This document shows, piece by piece, positions 1 through 14,543 of a DNA stretch of 14,543 bases. Both the position numbers and the translations under genes were made by a program. Under the pieces are notes generated by a model. That model did not search any database, was not told the DNA's origin, and saw nothing but the letters and a program-made list of their open reading frames with translations. Each line of letters begins with the position of its first letter. Within the stretch, counting starts at the first letter, position 1. Source of the DNA: PVC group bacterium (GTDB taxonomy: Bacteria > GCA-001730085 > JADFSZ01); the NCBI GenBank assembly GCA_022560555.1, contig JADFSZ010000020.1, positions 1 through 14,543 on the forward strand. The letters run 5' to 3'.

Positions 1-706
1 CAGCGCGAAATACTTTAAGAATCACTCCAAATGGAATATGCACATCGTCCAATATCGTATGTGCGGGAGGGGCCTTATAAAGGTCCCGGCGGATCGCATA
101 AAGCGCGCCTGTCGCGCCGAGCATAGAGTCAAACCGGGATTCAGATTTCCTCAAAAACTTTTCGTACCGCCAATACATATCCACGCCTTTGGCAAGCGAT
201 GACAAGTTGTCACGTTGAACAAACTCCAGTTCCCCGCTCACGCACCCAACAGCAGGATCCGCAAAATTATCAACAAGGTTACGAACAGCCATCGGATCCA
301 TCATCTCGGCTGCATCCGTAAAAACAATAATGTCCGAATTAAGCGATGACAAGGTTTTGTTAAGCGAGCACATTTTCCCTTCATTCTGTTCATACGCTAA
401 AAGTTTTATTCTGGAGTCCCTAAGAGCATATTCTTCGACAATCGCATGCGTTTGATCTGAAGATCCGTCCGAGGACACCACAAATTCAATTTGATCCCGG
501 GGATAGTCTATTTCCTGGCAATTGTTCAATTTATCCCTCATGACAAACTCTTCATTGTATACAGAAATCACTATAGATACTTTTTTTTGGATAAAGGCTT
601 TTTGAACGGGTCTTCCCGACAAACGTGAACAAACGAAAATCAATAGAGGGTATCCAAGGTAAGTGTATACGATAAATCCGAAGGCGAACCAAAAAAGCCC
701 TGTCAT
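1..706 (-). CDS. Glycosyltransferase family 2, membrane-anchored and synthase-like. Only the N-terminal ~235 aa are present; the gene runs off the window at position 1.
   Basis: Absent from the supplied ORF track because no stop codon falls in the window. Manual reverse-complement translation from the ATG at 706..704 gives MTGLFWFAFGFIVYTYLGYPLLIFVCSRLSGRPVQKAFIQKKVSIVISVYNEEFVMRDKLNNCQEIDYPRDQIEFVVSSDGSSDQTHAIVEEYALRDSRIKLLAYEQNEGKMCSLNKTLSSLNSDIIVFTDAAEMMDP...GATGALYAIRRDLYKAPPAHTILDDVHIPFG, and the frame stays open to position 2. It has an N-terminal hydrophobic helix and GT-A signatures (VSIVISVYNEE, SDGSSD, FTDAA at the DXD position, a later DD). The start overlaps the upstream stop as ATGA (703-706). 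Confidence 0.85.
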   Translation of the reverse strand, partial: MTGLFWFAFGFIVYTYLGYPLLIFVCSRLSGRPVQKAFIQKKVSIVISVYNEEFVMRDKLNNCQEIDYPRDQIEFVVSSDGSSDQTHAIVEEYALRDSRIKLLAYEQNEGKMCSLNKTLSSLNSDIIVFTDAAEMMDPMAVRNLVDNFADPAVGCVSGELEFVQRDNLSSLAKGVDMYWRYEKFLRKSESRFDSMLGATGALYAIRRDLYKAPPAHTILDDVHIPFGVILKVFRA

Positions 707-1488
707 GAGTCCGACCTCATGTGTTGAAAGCGCCGGTACAGTTTGTCATACCGCTTATGTCCGATGAGATTTTGAATCACTTTCTTAAATTGATCCTTTA
801 GACGATTTCTCCACATAATGCCGGGTTTCCTTCTTAGAATATTTTCGAGACAAGTAACACCTGTGTTCTTTCTTATGGCAATACGCGGGATATTAAGAAA
901 CGGTCCCCGGCTGATGTTATCTACAAATTGATATTGACTCGTAAAGATATACTCATATCCTGATTCAAGAGCGATGGTTTGCAGTTCGGGATGTTTTCGT
1001 CCCCCCGGAAGAGACAGCATTTTCACACTCACCGCTAAACGCTCCTCCAGAGTCCGACGGGACTCTTTAAGCTCCTCGGTCAATTCAGAAGTACTTAACA
1101 TGGAAAAAAATCTGTGCGTTAAACCATGGGATCCAATCCCCATCCCCGCGGCCGATATTTCAGCTAAATCCTGCCAACTCATATAACCCGCACAATCTAT
1201 ATGCTCAACGGTGACAAAGAAAACAGCCCGCAAACCACGTTCCTTTAAGATAGGATAAGCCTGAACATAATTATCTTTGTATCCATCATCAAACGTAATC
1301 ACAACGCTCCGGGCCTTTACCTGCTTGGGCCATTCATCCGGAAGCACAACATCCAGAGATTCCCGTTGAATAAGATCAAGATGCCTTAGGAACATCCCCC
1401 TCTCAACAGCATACTCCCTGTCGTAAAGAAGAAGATCGTTCATGCCTATGTGATGATACATCAAAACTGTCGAGCTTAATTTATTCAT
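703..1488 (-). CDS. Polysaccharide deacetylase (NodB homology domain, carbohydrate esterase family 4)
   Basis: 261-aa ORF with an ATG start at 1488. It carries NodB motifs: VITFDDGYKDNY (the TFDDG metal/catalytic Asp motif) and GSHGLTHR (the H-S/T-x-x-H motif). It sits 3 nt after the GT4 stop and overlaps the GT2 start. Confidence 0.9.
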   Translation of the reverse strand: MNKLSSTVLMYHHIGMNDLLLYDREYAVERGMFLRHLDLIQRESLDVVLPDEWPKQVKARSVVITFDDGYKDNYVQAYPILKERGLRAVFFVTVEHIDCAGYMSWQDLAEISAAGMGIGSHGLTHRFFSMLSTSELTEELKESRRTLEERLAVSVKMLSLPGGRKHPELQTIALESGYEYIFTSQYQFVDNISRGPFLNIPRIAIRKNTGVTCLENILRRKPGIMWRNRLKDQFKKVIQNLIGHKRYDKLYRRFQHMRSDS

Positions 1489-1491
1489 ATT

Positions 1492-2679
1492 CTACCCTGC
1501 AGCCTCTTGGTAGACACGGGCCATCTCACGCGCGATTTGCGCCCAATCGTATTTTTCTTCTACAAGCTTTCTCGCGCTTTCGGCTATCCGGAGATAATCA
1601 TCTTTGGATTGTGTCAACAAGGATATTTTTTCAATAAAAGCCTTTGGTGTATCGGCAAGCATAATTTCTTTTTTATCCTCTGCTTCAATTCCTTCGGCTC
1701 CGATCGTTGTGCTCACAACCGGACGACCCAGCGCCATCGATTCCAAAATTTTGATGCGCGTTCCTCCGCCGATACGAATAGGAACAATAAGAATGTCGGC
1801 ATCTAAGAAATACGGACGGATATCCTCCACGTTCTGATACACAGAAATTTTCTCATCCGCAAAATATGTCTTGAGCGAAGAATGGATTTTCCGTCCCACA
1901 ATGGAGCATGTCAACCGAGGTAGTGCTTGCGACAAGCTGCCCCAAATATCCGTAAAAAACCATTTCATCGCGTCAATGTTCGGCCACCAATCTAACGATC
2001 CGATAAAAACCAGTTGTTGAGGTTTTCTCGTATTCATTTGATACGCAAAATCACGGCAATTCACTCCATTTGACGCGACATGAACAGCCCCCTTATGGGA
2101 AAGTTTTTCCAAAAGATTTGCGTCTGTCAGGGAAACCGTGAATACAGCACGGAATTTGTCAATCCGCTCTTTTTCATAAGCCTTCATTTTTGAAGCCTGC
2201 CACTTCACAAAAAACTTCTTAAGGCCAAAAGGCAGCTTTTCACACAATCGCTCAGCAATAATATATTCCACATTATGCTCATCTAAGCAGGCAGGAATAT
2301 CAGGAACAAGATCAACATATTGAGCCATATGTATGTGGTCAAAATGAACAATATCATATTCTCCATCCCTGACTTTCGATTTTAGGACTTCACGCATTTT
2401 CGCGCAATCGTACTTCAAAACCACATACGGCTTTTTCGAAAAAAAAGACATGATCAGGCTCTCAAGCCGGTCCATCCAAGAATTCTTTCTTTTAACGCCG
2501 ATAATTTTCACCTTGCCCAAAAGTTTTTCAAACCCTTCAAGGGTCGCACGATGTCCGGCAAAACCGATCACAGAAACACTATGAAGCGCGCTGAGATTCT
2601 TTATATGGTTATACGTTCTGATTTTCGCGCCGGTATCTATGGGAAAGGGGATCTGAGGGACAACAAAAAGAATTTTCAT
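1492..2679 (-). CDS. Glycosyltransferase family 4 (GT-B fold, Glycos_transf_1 type)
   Basis: 395-aa ORF with an ATG start at 2679. The N-terminus MKILFVVPQIPFPIDTGAKIRTYN is typical of GT4. The C-terminal GGGTRIKILESMALGRPVVSTTIGAEGIE matches the E-x7-E nucleotide-sugar binding signature. Confidence 0.9.
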   Translation of the reverse strand: MKILFVVPQIPFPIDTGAKIRTYNHIKNLSALHSVSVIGFAGHRATLEGFEKLLGKVKIIGVKRKNSWMDRLESLIMSFFSKKPYVVLKYDCAKMREVLKSKVRDGEYDIVHFDHIHMAQYVDLVPDIPACLDEHNVEYIIAERLCEKLPFGLKKFFVKWQASKMKAYEKERIDKFRAVFTVSLTDANLLEKLSHKGAVHVASNGVNCRDFAYQMNTRKPQQLVFIGSLDWWPNIDAMKWFFTDIWGSLSQALPRLTCSIVGRKIHSSLKTYFADEKISVYQNVEDIRPYFLDADILIVPIRIGGGTRIKILESMALGRPVVSTTIGAEGIEAEDKKEIMLADTPKAFIEKISLLTQSKDDYLRIAESARKLVEEKYDWAQIAREMARVYQEAAG

Positions 2680-2699
2680 AAGCCGGTACTATTTTGATG

Positions 2700-3023
2700 T
2701 TATTTTAGCGAGTCTCCAATCCAACTCAGATAGGCCTCATGTCCGGCAATAATAGGTAAAAATAGTATTTCAGGAACTTCGTAGGAATGGACGAGACGTA
2801 CGGCTTCGACAATCTCTTCTTTTTTCTCTTCGATGGATTTCATAATAAGAAGATATTCATCGGCCTTATCAACATGGCCTTGCCACCAATACAGCGATTG
2901 CACGGGACCAACACGGTTTACGCAAGCAACCAGTTTTTTATCAAGAAGCATCCTTGAGATACTTTCAGCCTCTTCTCTTGTGGGAACCGTAACGTAACAA
3001 ACAACATATCCATTGACGGCCAT
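2700..3023 (-). CDS. cutA: Divalent-cation tolerance protein CutA
   Basis: 107-aa ORF. It aligns by eye with E. coli CutA: VTVPTREEAE...KLVACVN...SLYWWQG...YEVPEILFLP...YLSW. An SD-like GGTGTGAGGA lies directly upstream of the ATG at 3023. Confidence 0.9.
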   Translation of the reverse strand: MAVNGYVVCYVTVPTREEAESISRMLLDKKLVACVNRVGPVQSLYWWQGHVDKADEYLLIMKSIEEKKEEIVEAVRLVHSYEVPEILFLPIIAGHEAYLSWIGDSLK

Positions 3024-3033
3024 TCCTCACACC

Positions 3034-3486
3034 TTATTTTTGAAGGTTTGATAGCTGGGACGCCATTTCCATAATCTTTCGATCAAGAGTACTCGCCTCT
3101 TCGTTAAGGCGGTCAATCTCTTTTTCAGCGTCTAAAATAAGGACATTTTTTACCTTATCTCTTCGCCCCATAAGATCGTTGAGTTTTGTCCGAAGATTTT
3201 TGACTTGTATTTCATTCAGATCCGCCTTTATCAGATCCATTTCCTGACTTAACACGCGGATCTTTTGCTGAATGTCGCGAAGAAGCTGTTTTTTCTTCTC
3301 AAGCACCATCCGGTCTTCTTCAGAGAGATCTTCTGTTTTTCCGTCATAAATATTACTGATTTCTTTCTCCAAAATCTCCGCCTGTGTTTCGAGCCCCCCA
3401 ATTTCGGATTCTTTTAGCTTTACTTTCTCCTCCAAATTCTCCAAAGATTGAGCACTTTCATCTTCAACAATATTATCAAACGTCAT
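3034..3486 (-). CDS. Hypothetical acidic coiled-coil protein (150 aa)
   Basis: The ORF is rich in E, K, L and heptad-like periodicity throughout (LENLEEKVKLKESEIGGLETQAEILEKEISN..., LIKADLNEIQVKNLRTKLNDL...). I saw no enzymatic motif, TM helix or signal peptide. Its ATG (3486..3484) overlaps the gltX TGA (3485..3483) as ATGA. Confidence 0.7.
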   Translation of the reverse strand: MTFDNIVEDESAQSLENLEEKVKLKESEIGGLETQAEILEKEISNIYDGKTEDLSEEDRMVLEKKKQLLRDIQQKIRVLSQEMDLIKADLNEIQVKNLRTKLNDLMGRRDKVKNVLILDAEKEIDRLNEEASTLDRKIMEMASQLSNLQK

Positions 3487-4838
3487 CGCCTTTGCTCCCC
3501 ATCGTTAGCCTTGGTCTGAAATGATTTAATGAATTGCAATCCGTATGTCAGGTTTCTTTGGCATCGCTCGGGACCTAAAATCTCCATCACTAAAAAAATA
3601 CTCGGACTAACAGATTTGCCCGTTAAAACCACCCTTAAGGCCTGAAGAAAATCCCGGCTTTTAGTTGAATCATATTTATTGATAAGGGCTCTCGCGGAAA
3701 GCTCGATTTCCTTTGCATGAAACGGAACGATGCTCACTAACGCGTCTGAGACACATTCAATAAAGCCCTCAATCTCTCTATTAAACACTATTTTTTGGCA
3801 TGATGCAATATCATATTGAGGTTCATCAATAAAAAAATAATCCGAGCTTCTCGGCAAATCCTTCATGGTCTTCAGGCGTTCACGAATCAAGCCTATAACT
3901 TTTAGTAAATGCCCCTTGTCATAGGGCGGATCAACATATCCCAATTTGATCCATTCCGGAATAATGATGTTTGTCAGCTGATCTAAAGAACATGTTTTCA
4001 CATAATGAGCATTGATCCATTCGAGTTTTTTCATATCAAAAACAGCGCTCGACTTTCCGATGGCTTTAACCTTAAACTTTTTTATCATTTCAGCTTGTGA
4101 CATTATTTCCTGATTTCCTCCGGGCGACCAGCCTAACAGGCTTAGATAATTCAAGAGGGCTTCGGGCAATATGCCCTCTTTTTTGAAAGCCTCGACAGAA
4201 ACGGCACCATAGCGTTTCGACAAAACAGATCGGGCCTCATTCACAATCAACGGGAGGTGAATGTATTTTGGGGCCTGAAAACCGAGCGCCTTTCCAATGG
4301 CTAACTGTTTCGGTGTGTTTGACAAATGATCATCGCCGCGAAAAACATGTGAAATTGCCATCTCGTGGTCATCAACGGCACACGCAAAATTATACGTCGG
4401 AGTCCCGTCGGATTTCATAATGATAATCTCCGAAAACTCCGAGTTATCAAAAGCAACATCTCCTCTTAAGACATCCCGAACAATCGTTTTTCCCTGAGGA
4501 ACATGCAATACCACGGCCGTTTTTGAACCGTCACAGTATTCGGCCGAACCCATATCAAACAATTTCTCAACTTGCGTTCTATAAAGACTTTTTCTTTTTG
4601 ACTGAAATACCGGCCCCTCGTCCCAATCAAGTCCAAGCCACTGTAAGTGCTTGAGTATGTTCTCGGTTGACTTCCGGCTAGATCTCTCTTGATCCGTGTC
4701 CTCAATCCTGATGATAAAAACCCCGTCTTGGTTTCGCGCGTACAGCCAATTATAAATAGCTGTTCTGGCTCCGCCTATATGAAGCAGGCCTGTAGGACTG
4801 GGGGCAAATCGGACACGAACTGTCGCATCATTATTCAT
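3483..4838 (-). CDS. gltX: Glutamate--tRNA ligase (class I aaRS)
   Basis: It has the HIGH-type signature RVRFAPSPTGLLHIGGARTAIYNWLYAR and the KMSKS-equivalent VLSKR. I place the start at the ATG at 4838 (MNNDATVRVRFAPSPTG), which gives the usual short N-terminus. The track ORF extends to 4898, but that codon is TTG and adds 20 non-conserved residues. The true start is therefore 4838 (preferred) or 4898. Confidence 0.9.
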   Translation of the reverse strand: MNNDATVRVRFAPSPTGLLHIGGARTAIYNWLYARNQDGVFIIRIEDTDQERSSRKSTENILKHLQWLGLDWDEGPVFQSKRKSLYRTQVEKLFDMGSAEYCDGSKTAVVLHVPQGKTIVRDVLRGDVAFDNSEFSEIIIMKSDGTPTYNFACAVDDHEMAISHVFRGDDHLSNTPKQLAIGKALGFQAPKYIHLPLIVNEARSVLSKRYGAVSVEAFKKEGILPEALLNYLSLLGWSPGGNQEIMSQAEMIKKFKVKAIGKSSAVFDMKKLEWINAHYVKTCSLDQLTNIIIPEWIKLGYVDPPYDKGHLLKVIGLIRERLKTMKDLPRSSDYFFIDEPQYDIASCQKIVFNREIEGFIECVSDALVSIVPFHAKEIELSARALINKYDSTKSRDFLQALRVVLTGKSVSPSIFLVMEILGPERCQRNLTYGLQFIKSFQTKANDGEQRR

Positions 4839-4933
4839 GGATGCTTTTCCCACGCAAAACGCACATGGAGTGTGGCAATTTTCATCACGAAACTCCAATA
4901 AGATATAGACATTATGTTCATTCCAAGCTTTGT

Positions 4934-4963
4934 TATATAAATATCTTACGAGTTATATGTCAT
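4934..4963 (-). promoter_or_regulatory. Candidate sigma70-type promoter for gltX
   Basis: The minus strand reads ATGACA (4963..4958), an 18-nt spacer, then TATATA (4939..4934), about 95 nt upstream of the ATG at 4838. Identified by hexamer match only, in an AT-rich gap where such matches arise by chance. Confidence 0.3.
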
Positions 4964-5006
4964 GCGGCCGAATCTTTGGCACATGTTTTGCACGTAACAA
5001 ACACCT

Positions 5007-5078
5007 AAACCGGAGCACTTAGATTAGAGGTTTCCCCTGACGCACCCTAACGCCTCAACCCCTAAGTCTCCGGTTTTT
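5007..5078 (-). terminator. Long imperfect hairpin downstream of ftsA, a possible intrinsic terminator or structured RNA
   Basis: Arms aaaccggagcacttag (5007-5022) and ctaagtctccggttt (5062-5076) are reverse complements apart from one bulged base. The inner segments (cttagattagagg and cctcaacccctaag) can extend the helix with G-U pairs and bulges, leaving an apical region of about 22 nt. On the minus-strand RNA the stem is followed by UUUAGGUGUUUGUU. On the plus strand it is followed by TTTTT (5074-5078). Confidence 0.4.
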
Positions 5079-5097
5079 CATGAAAGCCCGTGCTCCA

Positions 5098-6342
5098 TCA
5101 AAACAAATCACGAAACCAATTTACGACATCATCGCCCCACTGAGACAATCTATTTTTTCGGCGGAACAAAAAGTCACCGCGATTGTTTTGTAAATCAAGC
5201 GCGTATTTAGCGACCCCGATAATGGTCGCATAGCACGGATTACGGATAATCGTATCTAGGCCAATAATATTATGCCCGCTTCCAACACGAACGTAAGTCT
5301 CGAATTCTTCAGCCGCTAAATCCTTAATCCCGCGAATCAAGGCTCCCCCTCCTGTTAAAATCACTCCCGAATTTAAATTTTTATTTAAATGATTTTTTTC
5401 TAATTTTTTGTGAATACTGCAAAAAACCTCTTCTCCCCAACTTTTTATTACACGGCAAAATTCCAGTTTATTAAAAACCGTCGGCGAACTTCGTGAATTC
5501 AAATTAATCGAAACAACTTCAGATTCACTGATATGATCAAGAGCAACATTCGAAAATTTTCTCTTTGTATCTTCGGCCATATCCCGCGTTAACCGGAACT
5601 GGCTTGATATCCTTTCCGTCAAATCATCCCCTCCCATCGGAAGAATTTCCGAATAAGTCAAAAATCCGTTTTGAAAACAGGTGATCGTGGTTGTCCCGGC
5701 ACCCAAATTAATCACAACACTTCCCAATTCGCGCTCTTCAGATGTGGTCACGATTTGAGAACATGCCAAGGCTCCAAAAACAAGCTCCCGGATTTCAACA
5801 CCCGTCCGCTGCACAGCTTTAATCAGATTTTGAATAGGATTGGTTGAAGCCGTGATGACATGAACACAAGCTTCAATCGTGTCCGCCCTCATACCAAAAG
5901 GATTCCGTACTCCCTGCATACCGTCAACGGCAAACCCACGCAGCACAGTGTGTATGATTTCCCGATTATCCGGAAGTGGAACCTGGTTGGAGAGATGGAT
6001 CGCTTGATTAATGTCCCTGTAGGTAACTTCTTGATGACTGTTATCCAGATGGTAATGTCCGGAATTGTTCACCCCCACAATATGCGGCCCGTTCACAGTT
6101 AAATACACAGCTTCCGTTTCAACTCCGGCTAAATCCTCGGCTTCTTCAAGGGAACAAATGACAGCGTTAACAACATCATCCATATCAATGACGATGCCTT
6201 GCTTCACGCCTCGTGAATCCGTTGCCCCCGTTCCAAGAATATTAACCTGACCATTCTCGTCTTCAAACGCGATAATACTGTAGACGGTGTTAGATCCGAT
6301 ATCAATCCCGGCAACGTATTTCCGTGTATGTTTCGTTCGCAC
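5098..6342 (-). CDS. ftsA: Cell division protein FtsA (actin/HSP70-fold ATPase)
   Basis: 414-aa ORF. Motifs include the phosphate-1 motif VAGIDIGSNTV, NLGAGTTTIT, and GVILTGGGALIRGIKDLAAEEF (FtsA-type adenosine motif). The C-terminal amphipathic segment DDVVNWFRDLF resembles the FtsA membrane-targeting helix. The start is GTG at 6342..6340, preceded by AGGAG with an 8-nt spacer. Confidence 0.9.
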   Translation of the reverse strand: MRTKHTRKYVAGIDIGSNTVYSIIAFEDENGQVNILGTGATDSRGVKQGIVIDMDDVVNAVICSLEEAEDLAGVETEAVYLTVNGPHIVGVNNSGHYHLDNSHQEVTYRDINQAIHLSNQVPLPDNREIIHTVLRGFAVDGMQGVRNPFGMRADTIEACVHVITASTNPIQNLIKAVQRTGVEIRELVFGALACSQIVTTSEERELGSVVINLGAGTTTITCFQNGFLTYSEILPMGGDDLTERISSQFRLTRDMAEDTKRKFSNVALDHISESEVVSINLNSRSSPTVFNKLEFCRVIKSWGEEVFCSIHKKLEKNHLNKNLNSGVILTGGGALIRGIKDLAAEEFETYVRVGSGHNIIGLDTIIRNPCYATIIGVAKYALDLQNNRGDFLFRRKNRLSQWGDDVVNWFRDLF

Positions 6343-6350
6343 CCGTAAAG

Positions 6351-6355
6351 CTCCT
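6351..6355 (-). promoter_or_regulatory. Shine-Dalgarno sequence of ftsA
   Basis: Plus-strand ctcct corresponds to AGGAG on the minus strand, 8 nt upstream of the GTG start at 6342. It is the strongest SD in the window. Confidence 0.6.
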
Positions 6356-6362
6356 AACCTTT

Positions 6363-6857
6363 TTATTTCCCCAAAAGACCGCGCTCCTGAAACTCCCGGA
6401 TTCGAGACGCGAGCGATCGGCGAAATTCAACTAAATTATCCTGAACGATACTCATTTCTGCTCGACTCATTCTTCGCTTCTTCGTCTTAGGGATAAATGA
6501 GTCGTACATAAGAGCTCCGTCCTCCAATATCCGCTCATGACGCGGATAATAATTTTTAAGCGTCCGCAACTCCTTGCCCGCGCGTCTCAAAAAACCAGCA
6601 TCTCGTTTTAAGTTATTTCCAAAATTTTTCTCCAATTCCCCCTGATAATATTTCCAGCGATTCACATGCTCGCTTTTCTCTCGATCCTCTTGGGTATAAG
6701 GCATTCTAATCTTCACCTGTTGTTTGGGAATAATTTTTTTCTTCTTACTCGCTGCCGCTTTACGGCCCCTGTACGCGCAAGCATGATTTGGAGCTACCAT
6801 CATCGCGAGCAAGACAAAAAGGAATAGCATCAGTATAGTTCGGGTTTTTCTAGTCAT
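6363..6857 (-). CDS. Hypothetical secreted, highly basic protein (164 aa)
   Basis: The N-terminus MTRKTRTILMLFLFVLLAMMVAPNHACA-YR has the n/h/c regions of a Sec signal peptide and an AxA-type cleavage site. The mature part is K/R-rich (AAASKKKKIIPKQQVKIR, KTKKRRMSR) and I recognise no motif in it. Its ATG at 6857 overlaps the upstream gene's end (6850) by 8 nt. Confidence 0.7.
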   Translation of the reverse strand: MTRKTRTILMLFLFVLLAMMVAPNHACAYRGRKAAASKKKKIIPKQQVKIRMPYTQEDREKSEHVNRWKYYQGELEKNFGNNLKRDAGFLRRAGKELRTLKNYYPRHERILEDGALMYDSFIPKTKKRRMSRAEMSIVQDNLVEFRRSLASRIREFQERGLLGK

Positions 6858-8337
6858 CGTTCTCTTCCTTCATCTGCGACTCGATTCTTTTTATCCCGTT
6901 TTTATCAAGAACAAGACGCAAACGGCGATATTGATTTCTTTCCTTGGCGCAAAACCTTAAAACGATGTTGACATGATACACGCGCTTGCCGGGTATAACT
7001 TGATAGTCCTCGTCATTGAGAACATAAATGTCCGTCACAGGGTCATCCATATATTTAAGCAAATAAGCCACGTTAAATCGCATAATATCCGAGAGGCCGA
7101 AAACAGGGTATCCTTTTTTGGGGATTCTTTTAGAATACAAGCGAATAACTTTTTGGTAAGTTAAAATGTTTTCTCCGTTTGCTTCGTTATCCATCGACGT
7201 GATATGATCCATATTCCGAATACGCAAAATCTCGGCGGGAACATCCTTTCGCCTGACAAAACGAAACATTTCCGAACATACCCCGAGTCGTCCCCGCTTT
7301 TTCAGGTCATAGATAAACGTGCGGATATCATAGAAGCGAGTGATAAATTTATTCTGGATATAATTTCTCATAAAATCTTTCAAACGATCCTTAAACATAT
7401 ACCCGACAACAAGCGCGATAAAGAAAGGCAGGGTAAAATCACCGTATTTTTTCTGGAATAAAAACGCGATAACCGTCGCGACAATCATGGCACATCCCGC
7501 GGCAACGGCATACGCGGCTTCTTTGGCAATTTTAGGCTCTTTGATACTGCGAATCGTTAAAAACAAAATATTGGATATGTGCTTTTTTAAAACACTTCGT
7601 CGGAAGATAAGCTGCTCATTATCTCCGTTTACATCCGGGGCCAGCGGATAGCCGGAATCTTTCCGGTAGCTTATCTCAGAACGTAATAAATCCATAATGG
7701 GCCCTTTAACTTTCAAACAGTCGGATTTTTTTGTATTTTCAACCAGCCGGACTAATCGGTAGGAATACTCTTCCACAAGATAGCTGACATATTCGTCCGT
7801 GTATTGAAGCATCTGTTTCATATGCCGCGTACGCACAATACGTTTATCCAAGTCATGTTTCAGAAGACGCCATACATGCAATATTTTTTTAATTTGACGC
7901 GCATAATTTGCGGCCTCCTCTGTCTCAATTTCTTTATGCCTATCTCGAAGACCCTCAACATAATCTCTAAGCGTACTTTTCATGATACAACCGAACATTT
8001 TAATGTGATACTCCAAAGCATCCGTAAGATTGTCCTGCATTTCCAATTCCTGCCATTGACCCAAAATGAGCAGCGGGCTTGCGGATGAAGTCAGGATATC
8101 CCCCATCGTCATCTTTGGGGTTTTAAATCTGATATACCCGTGCACATCATTGATAAAATCGGTTTTCTTGTACGTGGCTTGGTTAATATTTAAATGATAG
8201 GGAATAAAAAAGAAGGCATCAACTTGATATGAAGTCACTTTTTCATGAGAATTGAGAGGGTAATCAATTTTAATCTCAAACTGATTTCGGTCATGAACCC
8301 GTATAGATGCATCCTTAAAAAACTCTTGCGCAATCAC
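6850..8337 (-). CDS. Hypothetical membrane protein (495 aa) with a central two-TM hairpin flanked by large soluble domains
   Basis: Long uninterrupted ORF with a GTG start at 8337..8335; there is no in-frame ATG for about 75 codons. The two hydrophobic helices are AAYAVAAGCAMIVATVIAFLF and FTLPFFIALVVGYMF (aa ~274-315, nt ~7393-7518). The ~270-aa N-terminal region looks helical. The ~175-aa basic C-terminal region looks beta-rich (VYHVNIVLRF, RLRLVLDKNG). I could find no Walker, HExxH, GxSxG or other catalytic motif. Confidence 0.75.
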   Translation of the reverse strand: MIAQEFFKDASIRVHDRNQFEIKIDYPLNSHEKVTSYQVDAFFFIPYHLNINQATYKKTDFINDVHGYIRFKTPKMTMGDILTSSASPLLILGQWQELEMQDNLTDALEYHIKMFGCIMKSTLRDYVEGLRDRHKEIETEEAANYARQIKKILHVWRLLKHDLDKRIVRTRHMKQMLQYTDEYVSYLVEEYSYRLVRLVENTKKSDCLKVKGPIMDLLRSEISYRKDSGYPLAPDVNGDNEQLIFRRSVLKKHISNILFLTIRSIKEPKIAKEAAYAVAAGCAMIVATVIAFLFQKKYGDFTLPFFIALVVGYMFKDRLKDFMRNYIQNKFITRFYDIRTFIYDLKKRGRLGVCSEMFRFVRRKDVPAEILRIRNMDHITSMDNEANGENILTYQKVIRLYSKRIPKKGYPVFGLSDIMRFNVAYLLKYMDDPVTDIYVLNDEDYQVIPGKRVYHVNIVLRFCAKERNQYRRLRLVLDKNGIKRIESQMKEENDD

Positions 8338-8372
8338 TTTTGATTATCCCGGTCTGCTTTAGTTAAACATAA

Positions 8373-8406
8373 ATTGCATTATATCACTGCAGGGTCATAA
8401 TGCAAT
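8373..8406. repeat. Perfect 10-bp inverted repeat with a 14-nt spacer
   Basis: attgcattat (8373-8382) and ataatgcaat (8397-8406) are exact reverse complements separated by atcactgcagggtc. One arm contains the -35 hexamer above and the other overlaps the -10 hexamer. Confidence 0.8.
8378..8405 (-). promoter_or_regulatory. Candidate sigma70-type promoter for the 495-aa gene
   Basis: The minus strand reads TTGCAT (8405..8400), a 16-nt spacer, then a consensus TATAAT (8383..8378), about 40 nt upstream of the GTG at 8337. It lies in the 90-bp gap after the GT-C-like gene. Confidence 0.45.
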
Positions 8407-8427
8407 GCCTTGGTGCAGCAGCAACGC

Positions 8428-10206
8428 CTATTTCCTTGTCGAATTGATTTTTTTCTCGATGGTATCCAAAAGTTTTTTTGCTTTTTCATACTCCGGTGCT
8501 AGAGCATGCGCTTTTTCAAAATATGATTTGGCAAGATTAACATCTTGATGATTGAGCCAATAAATCCCGAGGTTCACATAGGCCCCTACATAATACGGGT
8601 CCACCTTTAGGGCTCGTTCCCATAAAACTTTTGCCTCTTGCCCAGAACCATCTAAGGCCATCTCGACACCCTTTTCCGTCAGACTTCTCGCGCTCCAGCC
8701 CCAAAAGGGGGTCTGCCGTTTCCTAAGAATAATGTCCGGCGTAATGAATCCGAGTTCAACACATCTCGTAATGAGTGAATCCTTCCAATCCCAAAGCCGC
8801 TCGGGCTTCTTGTCAATGTCAACAGGACTGCTGTTCCATCTTCCGATTTCAAACGAGAAGGCCCCGACAGCCTGTACGGCAATGGAAAAAATAACACAGA
8901 AAATAAAAATATATTTTAAATATTTTTTCGCGAAAATATCATGGATGACAAAAACGAAAAAGAAGCATATCAACGGAAGTAAATCGGCAGAATATCTTAA
9001 GCCAAACGACCAACCGGCCCACCACGCATGAAAACGACTGTACCAGAGAAAGACAATCGCAAGCGCAACTATCAATATTCGATAAAACAAAACCCCCTTT
9101 TTCCAGGCCCGTACCATCCCCCACACGGAAAAAATCAGAAACGGTGTAAACAAAAAAACCCCCCGGCTCGGGCTTACGAATATCCCCAAAAGACCTTTCA
9201 GCATGTTTCCCGACATCACACTTTTTCCTCCCAAATTATATAGTGTAGCTGTCGCGCCCGTTTCGGACATGAGCTTTCGGTATCCGCCCAAAACTGAGTC
9301 AAAATAGATCATGTTATAGATCAAATAGGGCAAAACGGTTATCAAAAACGCGCCCAAAATCCAAAACGACTTTTTCTTATAATTCCACATGAGGTAAGGA
9401 AGCCATATCAAAGCAATCAAAAAATCATTCGGCCGAGACATCACAGCGCAGGCCAAAGCAACACCAACCCACGGCAATAAGCCGACTTTGCCGTCTTTAA
9501 CCTGAAGTGTTAACAAGAGGGATAAACATAAAAATAACGCGCTCGGTCCATGCTGCCAAGCGGCTTGAGAACTAATCGCCCATGTTAATGTCCCAAAGGC
9601 ATATATCAGAGCCAAAAACACAGCGTATCTAAGAGGGACGTAAAGAGTAAAGATATAAAACAAGAGAACGACCGAAACGGAAACCCAAAAACTTGCGCTA
9701 AATTTTGCCAGGAGATCCACCACGGGCCGATTGATGGGATCAAGCCCCTTCATAAGAGGAAGAATATAAAATGGCGTGTTGATGATGCCGGGGAATACCG
9801 GCGAACTTGAAACAACATGCCCCCGGCCTCTTTGGATAAAATAGGGCAGTTCTTTTTCTTCGGCATCCCAAAGAAAATCAAACTCATCTAAATCCAAATT
9901 AAATTCTTTCAAAATCGATATCGGAATATACCGATTAGGAACCGTATCGTTTCCGCTATACTCTCTGAGGTTGATATTATAAACAACAAGGCATAATAGA
10001 AATAAAATAAGTCCCCATTTTTTCCGGCAGCGTACGTTCGGACGGGGCAACCGGAAGGTGTCCGTACGCGATGGAACGCAAGCCTTACGATAGGCGTGAA
10101 CATCTTTATGAGAACAATTCAAAACTCTTGCCATTTGGCGAACGGACTTGTTCTGATAGTGGTCCTCAATATACTTTTTGTCTTGCTTATTTAATTCACG
10201 TGACAT
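8428..10206 (-). CDS. Polytopic membrane protein: N-terminal HTH-like segment, ~12-TM GT-C-fold-like (ArnT/PMT-type) core, and C-terminal TPR repeats
   Basis: 592-aa ORF with an ATG start at 10206. Residues 5-42 (LNKQDKKYIEDHYQNKSVRQMARVLNCSHKDVHAYRKA) follow the sigma70-region-4/LuxR-type HTH pattern. About 12 hydrophobic helices follow, with an acidic first loop (SGNDTVPNRY...DLDEFDFLWDAEEKE), as in GT-C enzymes. The C-terminus GQEAKVLWERALKVDPYYVGAYVNLGIYWLNHQDVNLAKSYFEKAHALAPEYEKA is a clear TPR. The GT-C assignment rests on architecture and the loop motif only. Confidence 0.75.
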   Translation of the reverse strand: MSRELNKQDKKYIEDHYQNKSVRQMARVLNCSHKDVHAYRKACVPSRTDTFRLPRPNVRCRKKWGLILFLLCLVVYNINLREYSGNDTVPNRYIPISILKEFNLDLDEFDFLWDAEEKELPYFIQRGRGHVVSSSPVFPGIINTPFYILPLMKGLDPINRPVVDLLAKFSASFWVSVSVVLLFYIFTLYVPLRYAVFLALIYAFGTLTWAISSQAAWQHGPSALFLCLSLLLTLQVKDGKVGLLPWVGVALACAVMSRPNDFLIALIWLPYLMWNYKKKSFWILGAFLITVLPYLIYNMIYFDSVLGGYRKLMSETGATATLYNLGGKSVMSGNMLKGLLGIFVSPSRGVFLFTPFLIFSVWGMVRAWKKGVLFYRILIVALAIVFLWYSRFHAWWAGWSFGLRYSADLLPLICFFFVFVIHDIFAKKYLKYIFIFCVIFSIAVQAVGAFSFEIGRWNSSPVDIDKKPERLWDWKDSLITRCVELGFITPDIILRKRQTPFWGWSARSLTEKGVEMALDGSGQEAKVLWERALKVDPYYVGAYVNLGIYWLNHQDVNLAKSYFEKAHALAPEYEKAKKLLDTIEKKINSTRK

Positions 10207-10234
10207 GGATCAACTCTTCACCCATAAGTTGGCA

Positions 10235-10780
10235 TTATCTATTTCTCTTCGGGAGACCTTTTTTCTTGAGGAATAATCTGTTTGAGTTATGATCGATAAA
10301 ACCGTCATATTTTGACAAAACATCCTCACCTAAGATACCGGCTACGCCCGGCCTTCTGTTTTGGAAAGGATCCGGAATAATCCAAATCCTAAATTTTCCC
10401 AGAAAAACATTCTCACCCAATACAAAATCATTAATGATCGCCCCCAGGCCTGTCGTCTGCCCGGAGATACCGGAAAAGACGGCCTTGCGTCCGGTCAGTA
10501 TCACATCATACTTTTCTTGCGCGCTGCTGGAAAGAACGGATGATGTTGCCCCTGTATCCAAAAGAAATTTTGTTTTATGCCCGTTAATCGACACATTTAA
10601 AAAAAAGGCGTTCCCATCTTTTTCGAGAGGAATTTCGACATAATCACGCGTCGAAATCCTTAAGCTTTGATGCCCGCCGAAACCAGCCTCAGCAGAATGA
10701 GAAAACAGCACACACTGAAACACAAAACAAAAGAGGACATCATAAATCAAAACACGACAATGGTTTGATTTGTTAAACAT
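10235..10780 (-). CDS. Secreted retropepsin-like (clan AA) aspartic protease
   Basis: 181-aa ORF with a hydrophobic N-terminus ending SHSAEA-G, which is signal-peptide-like. It has the catalytic motif FLLDTGATSSVLS (D-T-G-A) after VSINGHKTK, and the downstream GILGEDVLSKY...RLFL typical of bacterial single-domain retropepsins (gag-polyprotein-like aspartyl protease family). The start lies 2 nt after the upstream stop. Confidence 0.85.
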   Translation of the reverse strand: MFNKSNHCRVLIYDVLFCFVFQCVLFSHSAEAGFGGHQSLRISTRDYVEIPLEKDGNAFFLNVSINGHKTKFLLDTGATSSVLSSSAQEKYDVILTGRKAVFSGISGQTTGLGAIINDFVLGENVFLGKFRIWIIPDPFQNRRPGVAGILGEDVLSKYDGFIDHNSNRLFLKKKGLPKRNR

Positions 10781-10782
10781 AT

Positions 10783-12900
10783 CTAAATCCTTTCTCCGGT
10801 AAAAGGGTTGAATCGATAATGCGCAAACAGATACCAGATGGTCGGAGCTACCGCAAGTTTATCGTCGGATAAAGCCCACCCGCCGTAAGCCGGCGTCCCC
10901 GCGTTACTCGCTTGAGGCAGGGCCAAAGTTGAACGATAATTTTGACTTTCTGTTAACGCACTTTCTACTTCCTTCAAATAATACGCGCCTTCAGATTCGC
11001 GAGCCACAGAAAAATAAGCAAGAGCCATCTGCGCTGTGCCCTCAAACCAAACGGTATCCTTGTCAGGATAAGGACCGTCAGCATACGTCGCGCCAAAATC
11101 AAATCCATCCACCCAAACACCTTTCAAAGAATAATATTTCTGATTTCGGCTTTTCTTTACGGCAAAATCTAAGGTTTCATTATAATCGCTGCCAAGAACA
11201 AGAACGGCCCAACTTGAAACATCCGTTGCATAATTCAAATCATTCTCACCCAAATTAAACCGATTTTCATGCTCGTTCCAAGCCACATTTTTCAGCCATT
11301 GGTGAACTTTTGATGCCGCGTTTTCAAATCTTTTTTCATGTGTTAATGCAGCCAATCCCTTGAGAGCCGCATAACAATCCAAGTTATGTTCCGTACTCGT
11401 CCATGGCATTTTCTTCTTCCTTGTTTCATATCCTCCGGTAATACCACCGTTATCTTTTTGTAAACCACGGAGCCAATCGGCAATCTCTTGGGCAAGATTC
11501 ATATATTTTTTGTCCTGAGTCGCCCGGGTATAATACGTAATCGCCATAAGCAGCCACGCGTTCGGTCCGGCCGCTTTCTTTTGATCGGACCAACCGTTCG
11601 TTCGATAAAAATCGGAAAACCCGTTAAAACGCCCAAACTTCTCTATTTGCTCATCCAATGCATCGTAATAAAAATTCAATATCTGACGCGCCTTAGGTAA
11701 TTGCCCGGTCAAGACATATAGCATTCCCCCCAAAGCCTGATCATAAGTATAACAATCCACGCTCCCTTCATAATTCGCAATAAGAGGGTATGCTTCCTCC
11801 ATCCATGCGGCTCTTGACTGATGCTGCGCCATGATCCAGTCAAATGTTTTCTTTGCATAAAAATTTGATGGTTTTAAATCCTTTAGAACATCCGCATCCC
11901 TCCCTTCATTCCGCTGAGGCCACAAAGATACAAAATCGACTGCATGTATTTTGGATTTTGAGGCTACACTAGATTTGTCCAACACAAGCTCCCCTCCCTG
12001 TTTTAACCCAAGAACAATCTTCGTGTCGTTTTCACGAACAATATCTCCAACCAAGCGGTTGCCGTTAGACAGGATAATTTCATCAATCGTCTCTAGGGAG
12101 AGCTCCTCATGGGCACTATCCCCAAGCAAATCTTTTTTAAGACCGATCAGTTCAGTGTCGATTTGTGTCATGCGCGCCGCAAGTTCAATTTTTTCCTGAT
12201 GAATATATTCAATCGTTTTTTCTAACTCAAGCTCCTTTTCCTGAAAATACAAAATTTGAGCTTGAAGCAACTGAAACGAATCACTGTCACTCTCGCTCAA
12301 GCTCAGGGCCTCTTGCTCGGTTTTGTTAATGTGCTCTCTTAATTGCTCCAGCTCTTTTATTTGAATGGATGAGCTGTACTCTAAAGCAGCATAATTCTTT
12401 TCTACGGAACCTTTTTTCTGAATGAGAACGGATATCTCTCCTTCAAGACCCCGAATACGATCCTGATATTTACCTACATATATGGCTGACACAATGACAC
12501 TTAAAATAAAGAAAATAGAAACGGCCGCGAGTCCATATCGATACCAGCGACGTCTTTTGGCAAATTGCCATAAACGCCGGCTGTACTCAGGCCGTATGTT
12601 TTGATATTCGATACCCATTAAAAGAGCGTCTTTAGAGGACAGCCAACGGATGATCCCGCTCGCTTTAATCGTCCCCCGGCCATGATCATCAATTTCCAAA
12701 TTGACAGTTTGACCTATGCCGAAGTCCAAAGGGTCAAAAGCTTTCAGCTCAAGACAAAGGCCGGTTTTACTGATGTTTTGGGTAAATCCTTGGATAAAGA
12801 GGGATTCTTTTGTGGACTTTGACAAGGGAAAATAGAAAATGCCGACAGGGAAAACAGTATCCATTCGTACATACTGCCGCTTGTCCTCGGGCTTCATCAT
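10783..12900 (-). CDS. PilZ domain / TM helix / coiled coil / small beta segment / C-terminal (alpha/alpha)6-toroid glycosidase-like domain protein (705 aa)
   Basis: Both PilZ c-di-GMP motifs are present: RQYVR (RxxxR, aa 8-12) and NISKTG (D/NxSxxG, aa 42-47). The TM helix YGLAAVSIFFILSVIVSAIYVG (aa ~122-143) is preceded by KRRRWYR. Heptad-rich sequence spans aa ~145-260. The C-terminal ~360 aa has repeated helical-hairpin signatures (YDQALGGMLYVL, GPNAWLLMAITYY, WTSTEHNLDCYAALKGLA, ATDVSSWAVLVLG, FEGTAQMALAYF, VAPTIWYLFAHY) reminiscent of six-hairpin glycosidase, epimerase or lyase folds. Its ATG overlaps the cysS TGA as ATGA (12897-12900). Confidence 0.85.
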   Translation of the reverse strand: MMKPEDKRQYVRMDTVFPVGIFYFPLSKSTKESLFIQGFTQNISKTGLCLELKAFDPLDFGIGQTVNLEIDDHGRGTIKASGIIRWLSSKDALLMGIEYQNIRPEYSRRLWQFAKRRRWYRYGLAAVSIFFILSVIVSAIYVGKYQDRIRGLEGEISVLIQKKGSVEKNYAALEYSSSIQIKELEQLREHINKTEQEALSLSESDSDSFQLLQAQILYFQEKELELEKTIEYIHQEKIELAARMTQIDTELIGLKKDLLGDSAHEELSLETIDEIILSNGNRLVGDIVRENDTKIVLGLKQGGELVLDKSSVASKSKIHAVDFVSLWPQRNEGRDADVLKDLKPSNFYAKKTFDWIMAQHQSRAAWMEEAYPLIANYEGSVDCYTYDQALGGMLYVLTGQLPKARQILNFYYDALDEQIEKFGRFNGFSDFYRTNGWSDQKKAAGPNAWLLMAITYYTRATQDKKYMNLAQEIADWLRGLQKDNGGITGGYETRKKKMPWTSTEHNLDCYAALKGLAALTHEKRFENAASKVHQWLKNVAWNEHENRFNLGENDLNYATDVSSWAVLVLGSDYNETLDFAVKKSRNQKYYSLKGVWVDGFDFGATYADGPYPDKDTVWFEGTAQMALAYFSVARESEGAYYLKEVESALTESQNYRSTLALPQASNAGTPAYGGWALSDDKLAVAPTIWYLFAHYRFNPFTGERI

Positions 12901-14441
12901 AATTGCATACTTGAGATAAGCTCGCTCATTTTTTGATGTGAATTATCCGCTCGCTCCGAGTAAGACGCGACAGTATAATGTTTATCTTCGCCGACTCCCG
13001 GCTTTTTATCTTCGATATCCATATCCGGAAATAATTTTACAAGCTCGTCTCGGATGTCATCAGCCCGATTCCAGTTTTTATCGTCTTTCGCACGGAGACG
13101 CATTTCAAGAAGTTGTCGAATTCCCTCTTTGAGTGGATCCTGACACACAACATCACTTACCACAATAATGCGCCCCGATTGAAATATATTGAGAATTTTT
13201 GACGCTTCATTAAAAAACCCAAATCCCTGTTTTACAAGCAAATATGTGTTTTTAGTGACACTCTCTGCCAAAATTTGATTGAGATCACGAATCAAAGAGA
13301 ACAAAACCCCGATGGCTTTGGGTGTATTAAAATCATCATTCATGGCCGCGGAAAATTCCTCATGATATTTTTTAATCTCCCCAACACGATCGCGAACTTG
13401 TGAATCCATAGAACAGGTGCGCTCAAGATACACTTGCACGTTTTTACTAAATTCATACCCGCGCTTGATCTGCTCATGAATGCCTTCGATCTGCTCGAGA
13501 GAAAAATCGATCGGGCTCCTATAATGCGTGGCCATAATAAAGAATCTTATATCCTCTGGCGGGTATTTTTTAAATAGTTCTGTAAGGGAAAAATAATTTT
13601 TGAGCGATTTGGACATTTTCTTTTTTTCGACGTTGACAAAACCGTTGTGAAGCCAATATTTCGCAAAAAGTTTTTTTGAGCATCCTTCCGACTGAGCGAT
13701 CTCGTTTTCATGATGGGGAAAGGTCAGATCCATTCCGCCTCCATGGATATCAAACGAAACGCCCAGATAATGCGTGGCCATGGCCGAACATTCAATATGC
13801 CACGCGGGCCGGCCCGCTCCCCACGGGCTTTCCCATGAAGGCTCCTGGGGCTTTGCTTTCTTCCACAAGACAAAATCGAGAGGATCTCTCTTTTTCCTAT
13901 CTTTCTCAACACGCGCGCCAATCAAAAGGTCATCGAGATTCTTCTTGGATAATTTACCGTAGGCATGAAATGTTTTTACGGAAAAATACACGTCTCCGTC
14001 AACATCATAAGCCATCTCCTTGCGGATGAGATCCCCTATCATCTCTTGCATGTGTTGAATATGTTCCGTGGCTTTTGGATAATGATCCGCCCGGGCGACA
14101 CCTAAAGCATCCATTTGGGAAAAATAAAGATTTGTATATTTTTCAGTGATCGCTTTTGTGTGCTCAATAAGGGACATTTTTTTATTTTTTTCATGTTCTG
14201 TAACAGCCTTTTTAATAATTTTATCATCGATATCCGTAAAATTCTGGACATAAGTCACCTTGTAGCCAAGATGCCTTAAGTATCGACGCATCATGTCAAA
14301 GGTCACATAAACTCTGCCGTGACCTAAATGACACTCATCATAAACAGTAACACCACACACATACATCCGCACGTGATCAGATTCTATTGGCTCGAAAATC
14401 TCTTTTTTACGCGCCAACGTATTATAAACGTAGAGACTCAT
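12897..14441 (-). CDS. cysS: Cysteine--tRNA ligase (class I aaRS)
   Basis: 514-aa ORF with an ATG start at 14441. Motifs include the HIGH region MYVCGVTVYDECHLGHGR, the zinc/cysteine-binding region GRPAWHIECSAMA, HGGGMDLTFPHHENEIAQSE, and KMSKS (KKKMSKSLKNY). Confidence 0.95.
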   Translation of the reverse strand: MSLYVYNTLARKKEIFEPIESDHVRMYVCGVTVYDECHLGHGRVYVTFDMMRRYLRHLGYKVTYVQNFTDIDDKIIKKAVTEHEKNKKMSLIEHTKAITEKYTNLYFSQMDALGVARADHYPKATEHIQHMQEMIGDLIRKEMAYDVDGDVYFSVKTFHAYGKLSKKNLDDLLIGARVEKDRKKRDPLDFVLWKKAKPQEPSWESPWGAGRPAWHIECSAMATHYLGVSFDIHGGGMDLTFPHHENEIAQSEGCSKKLFAKYWLHNGFVNVEKKKMSKSLKNYFSLTELFKKYPPEDIRFFIMATHYRSPIDFSLEQIEGIHEQIKRGYEFSKNVQVYLERTCSMDSQVRDRVGEIKKYHEEFSAAMNDDFNTPKAIGVLFSLIRDLNQILAESVTKNTYLLVKQGFGFFNEASKILNIFQSGRIIVVSDVVCQDPLKEGIRQLLEMRLRAKDDKNWNRADDIRDELVKLFPDMDIEDKKPGVGEDKHYTVASYSERADNSHQKMSELISSMQL

Positions 14442-14543
14442 GGGATAATGATTGAGGGTTAGTGTAAAGGATTTTTAAGATATGGGAACCAATGGGTCTA
14501 TCCATAACCTTTGATACTATTTTTCATCAAACGAACCAATACG

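Follow-up and report, generated by a model that had tools for sequence, protein, structure and literature searches.

Two genes of no recognised family stand directly upstream of ftsA in a bacterium of the PVC group; do they belong to the division machinery, or do they only share its address? The question is raised by contig JADFSZ010000020.1 of assembly GCA_022560555.1, whose 14,543 nucleotides (nt), positions 1 to 14,543 of the forward strand, are referred to here as the window, and by a minus-strand gene pair within it that encodes proteins of 495 and 164 amino acids (aa). FtsQ/DivIB is a bitopic POTRA protein whose gene is usually found upstream of ftsA, and ftsA is typically followed by ftsZ. 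A first-pass annotation had placed the pair in the position normally held by ftsQ, and had offered two readings: lineage-specific divisome or envelope components co-expressed with FtsA, or an unrelated membrane system that has hitch-hiked there. Our evidence favours the second. The explanation that we prefer, to which we give a probability of about 0.5 as a whole, is that a phosphate-linked hairpin membrane protein and an orphan envelope protein adjoin ftsA through lineage-specific gene order.

Results

The 495-aa protein belongs to a large unnamed family

Both open reading frames (ORFs) lie at 6363-8337 on the minus strand, with the lengths of 495 and 164 aa first given for them. In comparisons with two related contigs, the ratio of nonsynonymous to synonymous substitution rates (dN/dS) is 0.21 and 0.14 for the 495-aa gene and 0.16 and 0.14 for the 164-aa gene; since all values fall at 0.14-0.21, both ORFs are real genes under purifying selection. 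Their GC content and their GC content at third codon positions (GC3) are those of the flanking housekeeping genes, and the pair looks native to its genome.

A search of 5.8 billion proteins returned 276 full-length relatives of the 495-aa protein, of about 483-538 aa and all annotated as hypothetical; with E values down to 1e-107, the best non-self matches are 40% identical with 96-98% coverage. When 1.84 billion cluster representatives (50% identity clusters) were searched with a profile, at least 2,195 relatives were found at E<=0.001, and the family profile gives 570 bits for the cluster representative of the window's own lineage (P0001, 96% identical). At least 591 relatives were confirmed in GTDB species genomes from over a dozen phyla; carriers occur in Calditrichia, Desulfobacterota, Myxococcota, Gammaproteobacteria, Bacteroidota, Ignavibacteria, Lentisphaerae, Planctomycetota, Verrucomicrobia, Spirochaetota, Chloroflexota, Elusimicrobia, Deferribacteres and Cloacimonadota. 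The similarity extends over the full length, about 485-530 aa, in a single architecture, which qualifies the 495-aa protein as a family member, and all 22 of the invariant family columns are present in it. On these matches, it is a typical, full-length representative of a large family that is scattered over the phyla and has no name.

Known families gave no match to the 495-aa protein in Pfam, NCBIfam, PADLOC or PHROG, and a Pfam scan of 73 family members at E<=1 yielded only six marginal ThrE matches, located in the transmembrane (TM) region. Neither the family profile nor a profile of the C-terminal domain matched any PDB sequence. The profile searches that had been named as a check on the first-pass annotation thus assign the 495-aa protein to no known family and leave the 164-aa protein an orphan, which bears out its view that both are uncharacterised.

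Two metagenome-assembled genomes (MAGs) carry two family paralogues each (loci L034 and L061 in one, L027 and L051 in the other). A further member (L032) was found on a contig of 3.6 kb that had been binned into a Nanoarchaeota MAG, a placement that is probably due to a binning error or to horizontal transfer.

Predicted structure, topology and conservation

An AlphaFold2 (AF2) model of the 495-aa protein, built from a 73-sequence alignment, has a pLDDT of 90.9 and a pTM of 0.86. It begins with four strands (residues 11-71) and five long helices (88-258), continues with a pair of helices (269-298 and 303-331) in which a hydrophobic hairpin lies, and closes with a nine-stranded C-terminal domain (338-488). 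The second hydrophobic leg of the hairpin is short, at about 13-16 residues. Averaged over the family, the 10-residue loop between the legs holds 0.6 K/R and the 17 residues past the second TM helix (TM2) hold 5.1; because positive residues are scarce in the loop and abundant past TM2, both large domains should face the cytoplasm. The central TM hairpin with both domains on the same side of the membrane, as originally read from the letters, is therefore backed by hydropathy, by the AF2 helices and by the distribution of charge.

Conservation peaks in three places. The first is a set of stripes at a spacing of 3-4 residues along both TM helices (A280/G281-M284-A287/T288-F292-Q295 and F306-L309/V310-Y313-K316/D317). 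The second is an invariant Y313-x-x-K316-D317-R318 at the point where TM2 leaves the membrane, within a family motif, Y-[MI]-[FL]-K-D-R-[IL]-K-[ED], that reads YMFKDRLKD in the window protein. The third comprises charged residues on the beta strands (E21/K23, R70, E389, R420, Y454/H455/N457 and R474). Foldseek searches of the PDB returned nothing significant, either for the whole model, where generic helical repeats came out best (E = 0.08), or for the separately predicted C-terminal domain (pLDDT 83; best E = 0.23), and a fold search of BFVD gave no match.

The family lies apart from ftsA and recurs beside phosphate and anion genes

We compared the window with 81 other loci that carry a family gene (78 from GTDB genomes and three from contig look-ups), whose neighbouring genes were clustered by all-against-all BLAST; four further loci used as a forward test bring the number outside the immediate lineage to 85. 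In none of these 85 does ftsA or a relative of the 164-aa gene stand beside the family gene. Outside the window, the FtsA cluster and that of the 164-aa protein turn up in two contigs with 88-96% identical proteins (L006 and L007) and nowhere else, and Pfam-annotated look-ups of the loci of eight homologues found no division genes nearby. A lack of adjacency to ftsA in relatives was among the findings named at first pass as refuting the idea. On that criterion, the proposal that the pair consists of lineage-specific divisome components does not hold for the 495-aa protein, whose family has no link to ftsA beyond the immediate lineage, and the evidence favours the second reading, in which a membrane system unconnected with division has come to lie there.

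Phosphate or anion genes stand near the family gene in 33 of the 81 loci. In about 20 Bacteroidota genomes it closes a cluster of PhoU_div, PHO4, porin O/P, an LTD protein, a 213-aa protein, CYTH and a DASS symporter, while Melioribacter has a different order, with the family gene followed by PhoU_div and PHO4. PHO4 lies directly downstream of the family gene in one deltaproteobacterium, and a Ppx/GppA exopolyphosphatase gene lies 12-160 nt downstream in two proteobacteria, one of which has a SulP anion transporter gene upstream. A verrucomicrobial MAG has the order GDPD-HAD-family gene-GDPD with gaps of 1 and -4 nt, and a second paralogue 3 nt after a metallophosphoesterase gene; GDPD is found within two genes of the family gene in four Chloroflexota. 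The family gene is usually a single gene among metabolic or transport genes, and in many genomes it stands alone. These recurrent neighbours in other phyla suggest a role for the family in phosphate or anion homeostasis, a proposal made by analogy of context that we hold tentatively, at somewhat less than an even chance.

Several observations concern these neighbourhoods in their own right. The two paralogues of the verrucomicrobial MAG adjoin different phosphoesterase genes. In a Melioribacteraceae MAG (L069, 8487-12946) the family gene sits inside a set of tripartite tricarboxylate transporter genes, separated by 8 and 9 nt from the fused tctC-tctB and the tctA that flank it, directly upstream of PhoU_div-PHO4. 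In the phosphate cluster, the gene for the 213-aa protein (L049, 7042-7683, and its equivalents in alignment A6) always comes directly before the CYTH gene; its product has 81% mean column identity over 16 Bacteroidota/Ignavibacteria genomes, no Pfam match and no relation to the 495-aa family, and is a candidate for another uncharacterised phosphate-related family. A literature search found no paper that ties a protein like the 495-aa one to CYTH, PHO4 and Bacteroidetes clusters.

The 164-aa protein is an orphan

Among the 5.8 billion proteins, the relatives of the 164-aa protein form only two clusters, at 95% and 88% identity. Six-frame phmmer and jackhmmer searches of about 90 related loci found no relative beside other members of the 495-aa family, and there is no similarity in Pfam, NCBIfam or PDB sequences. 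By these searches the protein is a true orphan, restricted to one genus-level lineage.

The signal-peptide-like N-terminus and the basic tracts that were first described in this protein are present (39 K+R against 17 D+E). The elements of a Sec signal can be read by eye: a positive n-region, MTRKTRT; a 15-residue hydrophobic core, ILMLFLFVLLAMMVA; and PNHACA before a tyrosine, an A-x-A-type site. Seven K/R fall within the 15 residues after the putative A-C-A/Y site, which would disfavour export and would fit an uncleaved anchor with the N-terminus outside and a basic domain in the cytoplasm. The simplest reading makes the 164-aa protein a young, lineage-specific accessory of the 495-aa protein.

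A plausible three-gene transcription unit

The pair has a promoter-like element about 41 nt upstream of the GTG start of the 495-aa gene. The two hexamers and the 16-nt spacer reported at first pass are there, with their weight shifted: the -35, TTGCAT, agrees with TTGACA at only three of six positions and was skipped by a consensus promoter scan, and the extended -10, TGATATAAT (8378-8386, minus strand), which holds the only copy of TGNTATAAT in the window, is the stronger signal. A palindrome that spans both hexamers is unique in the window, was reproduced by none of 200 shuffles and is identical in L006; it is a candidate operator for a dimeric regulator. The intergenic region upstream of the pair as a whole is 99% identical in L006, which is suggestive for a stretch too short to prove constraint. 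The 5' leader has no significant RNA fold, and no tRNA or riboswitch was found near the pair.

The gene junctions are also as first described. The 8-nt overlap of the pair, which is kept in L006 and L007, is preceded by a Shine-Dalgarno-like AAGGAAG, and because of these two features translational coupling is suggested. The 164-aa gene ends 20 nt before the ftsA start, which has the form AGGAG-N8-GTG. Our scan found no terminator-like site between the pair and ftsA. In the ftsA-gltX spacer, a branched stem-loop with a U-rich tract after it has no Rfam match; it is the likely terminator of the unit, and may alternatively be a leader element for gltX. From the promoter of the pair, the lack of a terminator before ftsA and the hairpin with its U-rich run after ftsA, it is plausible that the three genes form one transcription unit of which ftsA is the last gene. 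Co-transcription with ftsA does not by itself establish a common function.

A genuine FtsA detached from the dcw cluster

The gene downstream of the pair scores 316 bits against TIGR01174 in NCBIfam (cutoff 176), contains the Pfam SHS2_FTSA insert (E = 1.5e-18) and encodes a C-terminal amphipathic helix, WGDDVVNWFRDLF; on account of these three features we regard the product as a genuine FtsA. Its surroundings are those of a gene that has left its usual cluster. It is followed, across a 199-nt spacer, by gltX and not by ftsZ; no mur gene, ftsW or ftsQ was found before the pair by Pfam or NCBIfam, and ftsA is the only dcw gene in the 14.5-kb contig. One of the closest FtsA homologues (32% identity), in a comparison locus (L093), is by contrast encoded in an ftsW-murC-murB-ftsQ-ftsA-ftsZ cluster. 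The ftsA of the window is detached from the dcw cluster, and with no mur, ftsW or ftsQ before the pair and gltX after ftsA, the phrase "ftsQ position" is misleading and carries little weight. The closest non-self homologue of this FtsA is 35% identical, with none between 99% and 35%, which places the source in a PVC lineage that branches deep and is poorly sampled. Neither a scan of GTDB genomes with this FtsA nor a search of contigs for the exact 495-aa product turned up the source genome or a close relative. Division gene sets that are rearranged, reduced and modified are a known trait of PVC bacteria (PMC5147048).

Neighbouring genes and rejected candidates

All 12 sizeable genes of the window are on the minus strand, and Pfam and NCBIfam assignments give the following order of transcription: cysS, a 705-aa PilZ-domain protein, a 181-aa retropepsin-like aspartyl protease, a 592-aa multi-pass protein with a C-terminal TPR, the 495-aa gene, the 164-aa gene, ftsA, gltX, a 150-aa coiled-coil protein, cutA, a glycosyltransferase and a polysaccharide deacetylase (Table 1). 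A PilZ domain opens the 705-aa protein, which also contains a TM segment, a long coiled coil and, at its C-terminus, a large domain without assignment; the start of the gene overlaps the cysS stop by 4 nt. The protein may be an envelope protein that responds to cyclic di-GMP. The aspartyl protease has a signal peptide and a weak match to the PADLOC candidate PDC-M08B, and the 592-aa protein, apart from its TPR, is weakly similar to the putative glycosyltransferases LA_3751/LA_3752 of Leptospira. The longest gltX ORF begins at TTG with a 20-residue extension, LEFRDENCHTPCAFCVGKAS; the start is more likely the ATG at about 4838 (MNNDATVRVRFAPSPTG...). The 471-aa version of gltX is absent from the protein collection, in which the products of the neighbouring genes are present.

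Table 1. Positions of the features discussed, numbered along the window.
Feature	Position	Strand	Basis
495-aa gene, GTG start, GenBank MCH7504378.1 (hypothetical)	6850-8337	-	ORF and exact-sequence look-up
164-aa gene, ATG start, GenBank MCH7504377.1 (hypothetical)	6363-6857	-	ORF and exact-sequence look-up
ftsA, 414 aa	5098-6342	-	TIGR01174, Pfam FtsA and SHS2_FTSA
Overlap of 495-aa gene end with 164-aa gene start, 8 nt, ATGACTAG	6850-6857	-	sequence
Putative signal peptide or signal-anchor of the 164-aa protein, residues 1-28	6774-6857	-	sequence and hydropathy
Predicted TM hairpin of the 495-aa protein, about residues 275-316, then juxtamembrane Y313-M-F-K316-D317-R318	7390-7515	-	hydropathy, AF2, charge, conservation
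Promoter-like TTGCAT, 16-nt spacer, TATAAT	-35 8400-8405, -10 8378-8383	-	sequence
Palindrome (candidate operator), 34 nt (17+17), outer 10 nt perfect (ATTGCATTAT...ATAATGCAAT)	8373-8406		spans -35 and -10
Branched stem-loop then U-rich tract, ftsA-gltX spacer	4991-5093	-	RNA fold -50.4 kcal/mol, z = -2.9 against shuffles
ftsA, 199-nt spacer and gltX	3483-6342	-
Extension of the longest gltX ORF	4838-4898	-
592-aa protein gene and, upstream of it, 181-aa aspartyl protease gene	8428-10780	-
705-aa PilZ-domain protein gene	10783-12900	-

A number of specific identities were tried and rejected. FtsQ/DivIB was dismissed for both proteins, as neither has a POTRA_1 or FtsQ_DivIB_C match at E<=0.1 in Pfam or NCBIfam and the AF2 architecture of the 495-aa protein is unrelated; ZipA, FtsN and Sbp were dismissed on the lack of ZipA_C, SPOR or Sbp-type matches in the same collections and on empty PDB sequence searches. 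The alternating charged residues on the strands of the 495-aa protein had led us to consider a CYTH/TTM-like tunnel, which was abandoned: hhalign gave a probability of 0.1 against 18 neighbouring CYTH proteins, there is no ExExK, and none of 73 members has a Pfam CYTH match. A CorA-type GxN channel was set aside because the motif is not conserved, the best CorA-type Foldseek match has a probability of 0.15 and a TM-score of 0.12, and Pfam CorA is not matched. Defence or phage origin was rejected, with no PADLOC or PHROG match and an empty BFVD fold search.

Discussion

Our analysis suggests the following model for the locus. The pair would be transcribed from its own extended -10 promoter, which a palindromic, operator-like site overlaps, and transcription would probably read through into ftsA. 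The 495-aa protein would be an inner-membrane protein, anchored by its two-helix hairpin and exposing to the cytoplasm both an N-terminal part, beta strands and a five-helix bundle, and a C-terminal beta-rich domain. We propose that it is not part of the divisome, and that its family most likely acts as a membrane-bound regulator or accessory of phosphate or anion transporters, or as an oligomeric two-TM conduit. The 164-aa protein would most likely serve as an envelope-side accessory of the 495-aa protein, and the adjacency to ftsA would be a matter of chance, peculiar to the gene order of this lineage, whose ftsA no longer sits in the dcw cluster.

Several points weigh against this model. 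The link to phosphate is one of guilt by association: about 25 related Bacteroidota/Ignavibacteria loci dominate the 33 of 81, and GDPD, Ppx, HAD and Metallophos were chosen as neighbour families after they had been seen adjacent. Specific phosphate genes were found in none of the four forward-test loci, one of which has a 5'-nucleotidase gene three genes away, and no phosphate gene lies near the pair in the window itself. The 495-aa protein has neither a recognised ligand-binding or catalytic motif nor a structural analogue in the PDB and BFVD fold searches. The order of the putative glycosyltransferase (592-aa), 495-aa, 164-aa and ftsA genes is kept in both of the relatives available, and the 20-nt gap, with no intervening terminator and a hairpin only after ftsA, has the look of a functional operon.

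A more specific version of the same explanation would make the 495-aa family an oligomeric two-TM ion or anion channel, like CorA/Mrs2 or MCU. The short loop of the hairpin, taken here as 7 residues, is what such a channel would have, the majority loop sequence YGNF is reminiscent of the YGMNF motif of CorA, and the family gene often has transporter genes as neighbours (DASS, PHO4, SulP, TctABC and MFS). The loop residues Y298, G299 and N300 are, however, conserved at less than 90%, and the window protein reads YGDF, so that the G-x-N signature does not hold. The conserved stripes on both TM helices fit a pore, and are explained equally well by packing inside the hairpin; CtMrs2 does appear among the Foldseek matches, at rank 12 and with a probability of 0.15, in a match that is not significant (TM-score 0.12). 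We consider a channel of this kind doubtful.

Less probable still is a reading that assigns the pair, or the 164-aa protein at a minimum, to the divisome as a lineage-specific component, one that would assume some of the FtsQ-, FtsN- or ZipA-type role in a deep PVC lineage with a diverged division machinery. Its main content is a role of the 164-aa protein with FtsA, ZipA- or FtsN-like in layout, which is not the reading that we favour: if the basic C-terminal part is cytoplasmic, as the positive-inside rule would have it for an N-out/C-in protein, the layout would be that of a ZipA-like tether. The operon-like spacing and the conserved gene order speak for such a role, as do the absence of any ftsQ-like gene from the contig in Pfam and NCBIfam searches, the strong divergence of this FtsA and the modified division gene sets of PVC bacteria (PMC5147048). 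Against it, the 495-aa family has a different recurrent context, and does without ftsA, in the 85 other loci; neither POTRA or FtsQ_DivIB_C nor SPOR or ZipA_C was matched; and, with the dcw context wholly missing, nothing is left of the positional analogy to ftsQ. As for the conserved order, all the sequences that share it are 88-96% identical, too close to reveal selection on gene order. That the pair is mobile-element cargo or an anti-phage defence module inserted upstream of ftsA is scarcely credible: the patchy distribution over phyla, the variable contexts of the 495-aa family and a transposase gene two genes away in one locus (L061) would fit, but neither protein belongs to a PADLOC or PHROG family, GC and GC3 are indistinguishable from those of the flanking housekeeping genes, the borders have no integrase, repeats or tRNA, and the 495-aa family usually consists of a single gene amid metabolic or transport genes.

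The explanation that we prefer, a hairpin membrane protein with a phosphate connection and its orphan partner beside a displaced ftsA, removes the tempting but wrong annotation of an FtsQ substitute. It also moves the interest from this locus to the family, which has thousands of members in over a dozen phyla and a confident predicted structure, and has no name, Pfam model or structural analogue; it is far from any described kind, though such dark families are numerous. If the phosphate hypothesis is true, the family would be a new component of phosphate or anion homeostasis in bacteria. The genes that recur beside it (Pit/PHO4, PhoU_div, porin O/P, CYTH, DASS, SulP, Ppx and GDPD) turn the idea into a testable hypothesis, and Marinifilum, Labilibaculum, Flexistipes and Butyricimonas are cultivable carriers. 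The boldest form of the idea, that proteins of about 490 aa form an unrecognised class of cytoplasm-facing, hairpin-anchored proteins of phosphate or anion homeostasis with a fold absent from the PDB, joined here with a new basic envelope protein and a detached ftsA so as to couple division to phosphate status, strikes us as quite improbable. The locus itself documents a PVC lineage in which ftsA stands apart from ftsZ and the remaining dcw genes, and so bears on the rearrangement of division genes in the superphylum.

Comparison with known systems

The pair resembles FtsQ/DivIB in being encoded directly upstream of ftsA and in its association with the membrane. FtsQ has one TM segment and a periplasmic domain, whereas the 495-aa protein would be a two-helix hairpin with both domains in the cytoplasm, and the 164-aa protein is too short and has no detectable POTRA or FtsQ domain; in place of the dcw setting seen in L093, the pair is preceded by the putative glycosyltransferase, aspartyl protease, PilZ and cysS genes, and ftsA by the pair is followed by gltX. 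The 164-aa protein recalls ZipA, FtsN and Sbp as a small, basic protein with one N-terminal hydrophobic segment, encoded directly upstream of ftsA, as Sbp of B. subtilis is, and differs from them in having no homologues outside one genus-level lineage.

The 495-aa family shares with CYTH/TTM proteins strands with alternating conserved charges (Q19-E21-K23, R472/R474 and Y454-H455-N457), and a CYTH gene is a frequent neighbour; it differs in having no ExExK, and no TTM structure is among its Foldseek matches. With CorA/Mrs2/ZntB it shares a succession of parts, a cytoplasmic beta-containing domain, a long helical bundle, TM1, a very short loop, TM2 and a basic juxtamembrane stretch, and it departs from them in an extra C-terminal beta domain of 170 residues, in the lack of a conserved G-x-N and in Foldseek matches that are not significant. 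PhoU_div (DUF47) and PhoU, which are accessory proteins of the PHO4/Pit and Pst phosphate transporters, have no sequence relation to the family; proteins of the PhoU type are soluble bundles of helices and lack TM segments. The link to them is one of context and is absent in the window. In the other loci, however, the family recurs beside PHO4, PhoU_div and other phosphate genes, which makes a comparable regulatory or accessory role plausible.

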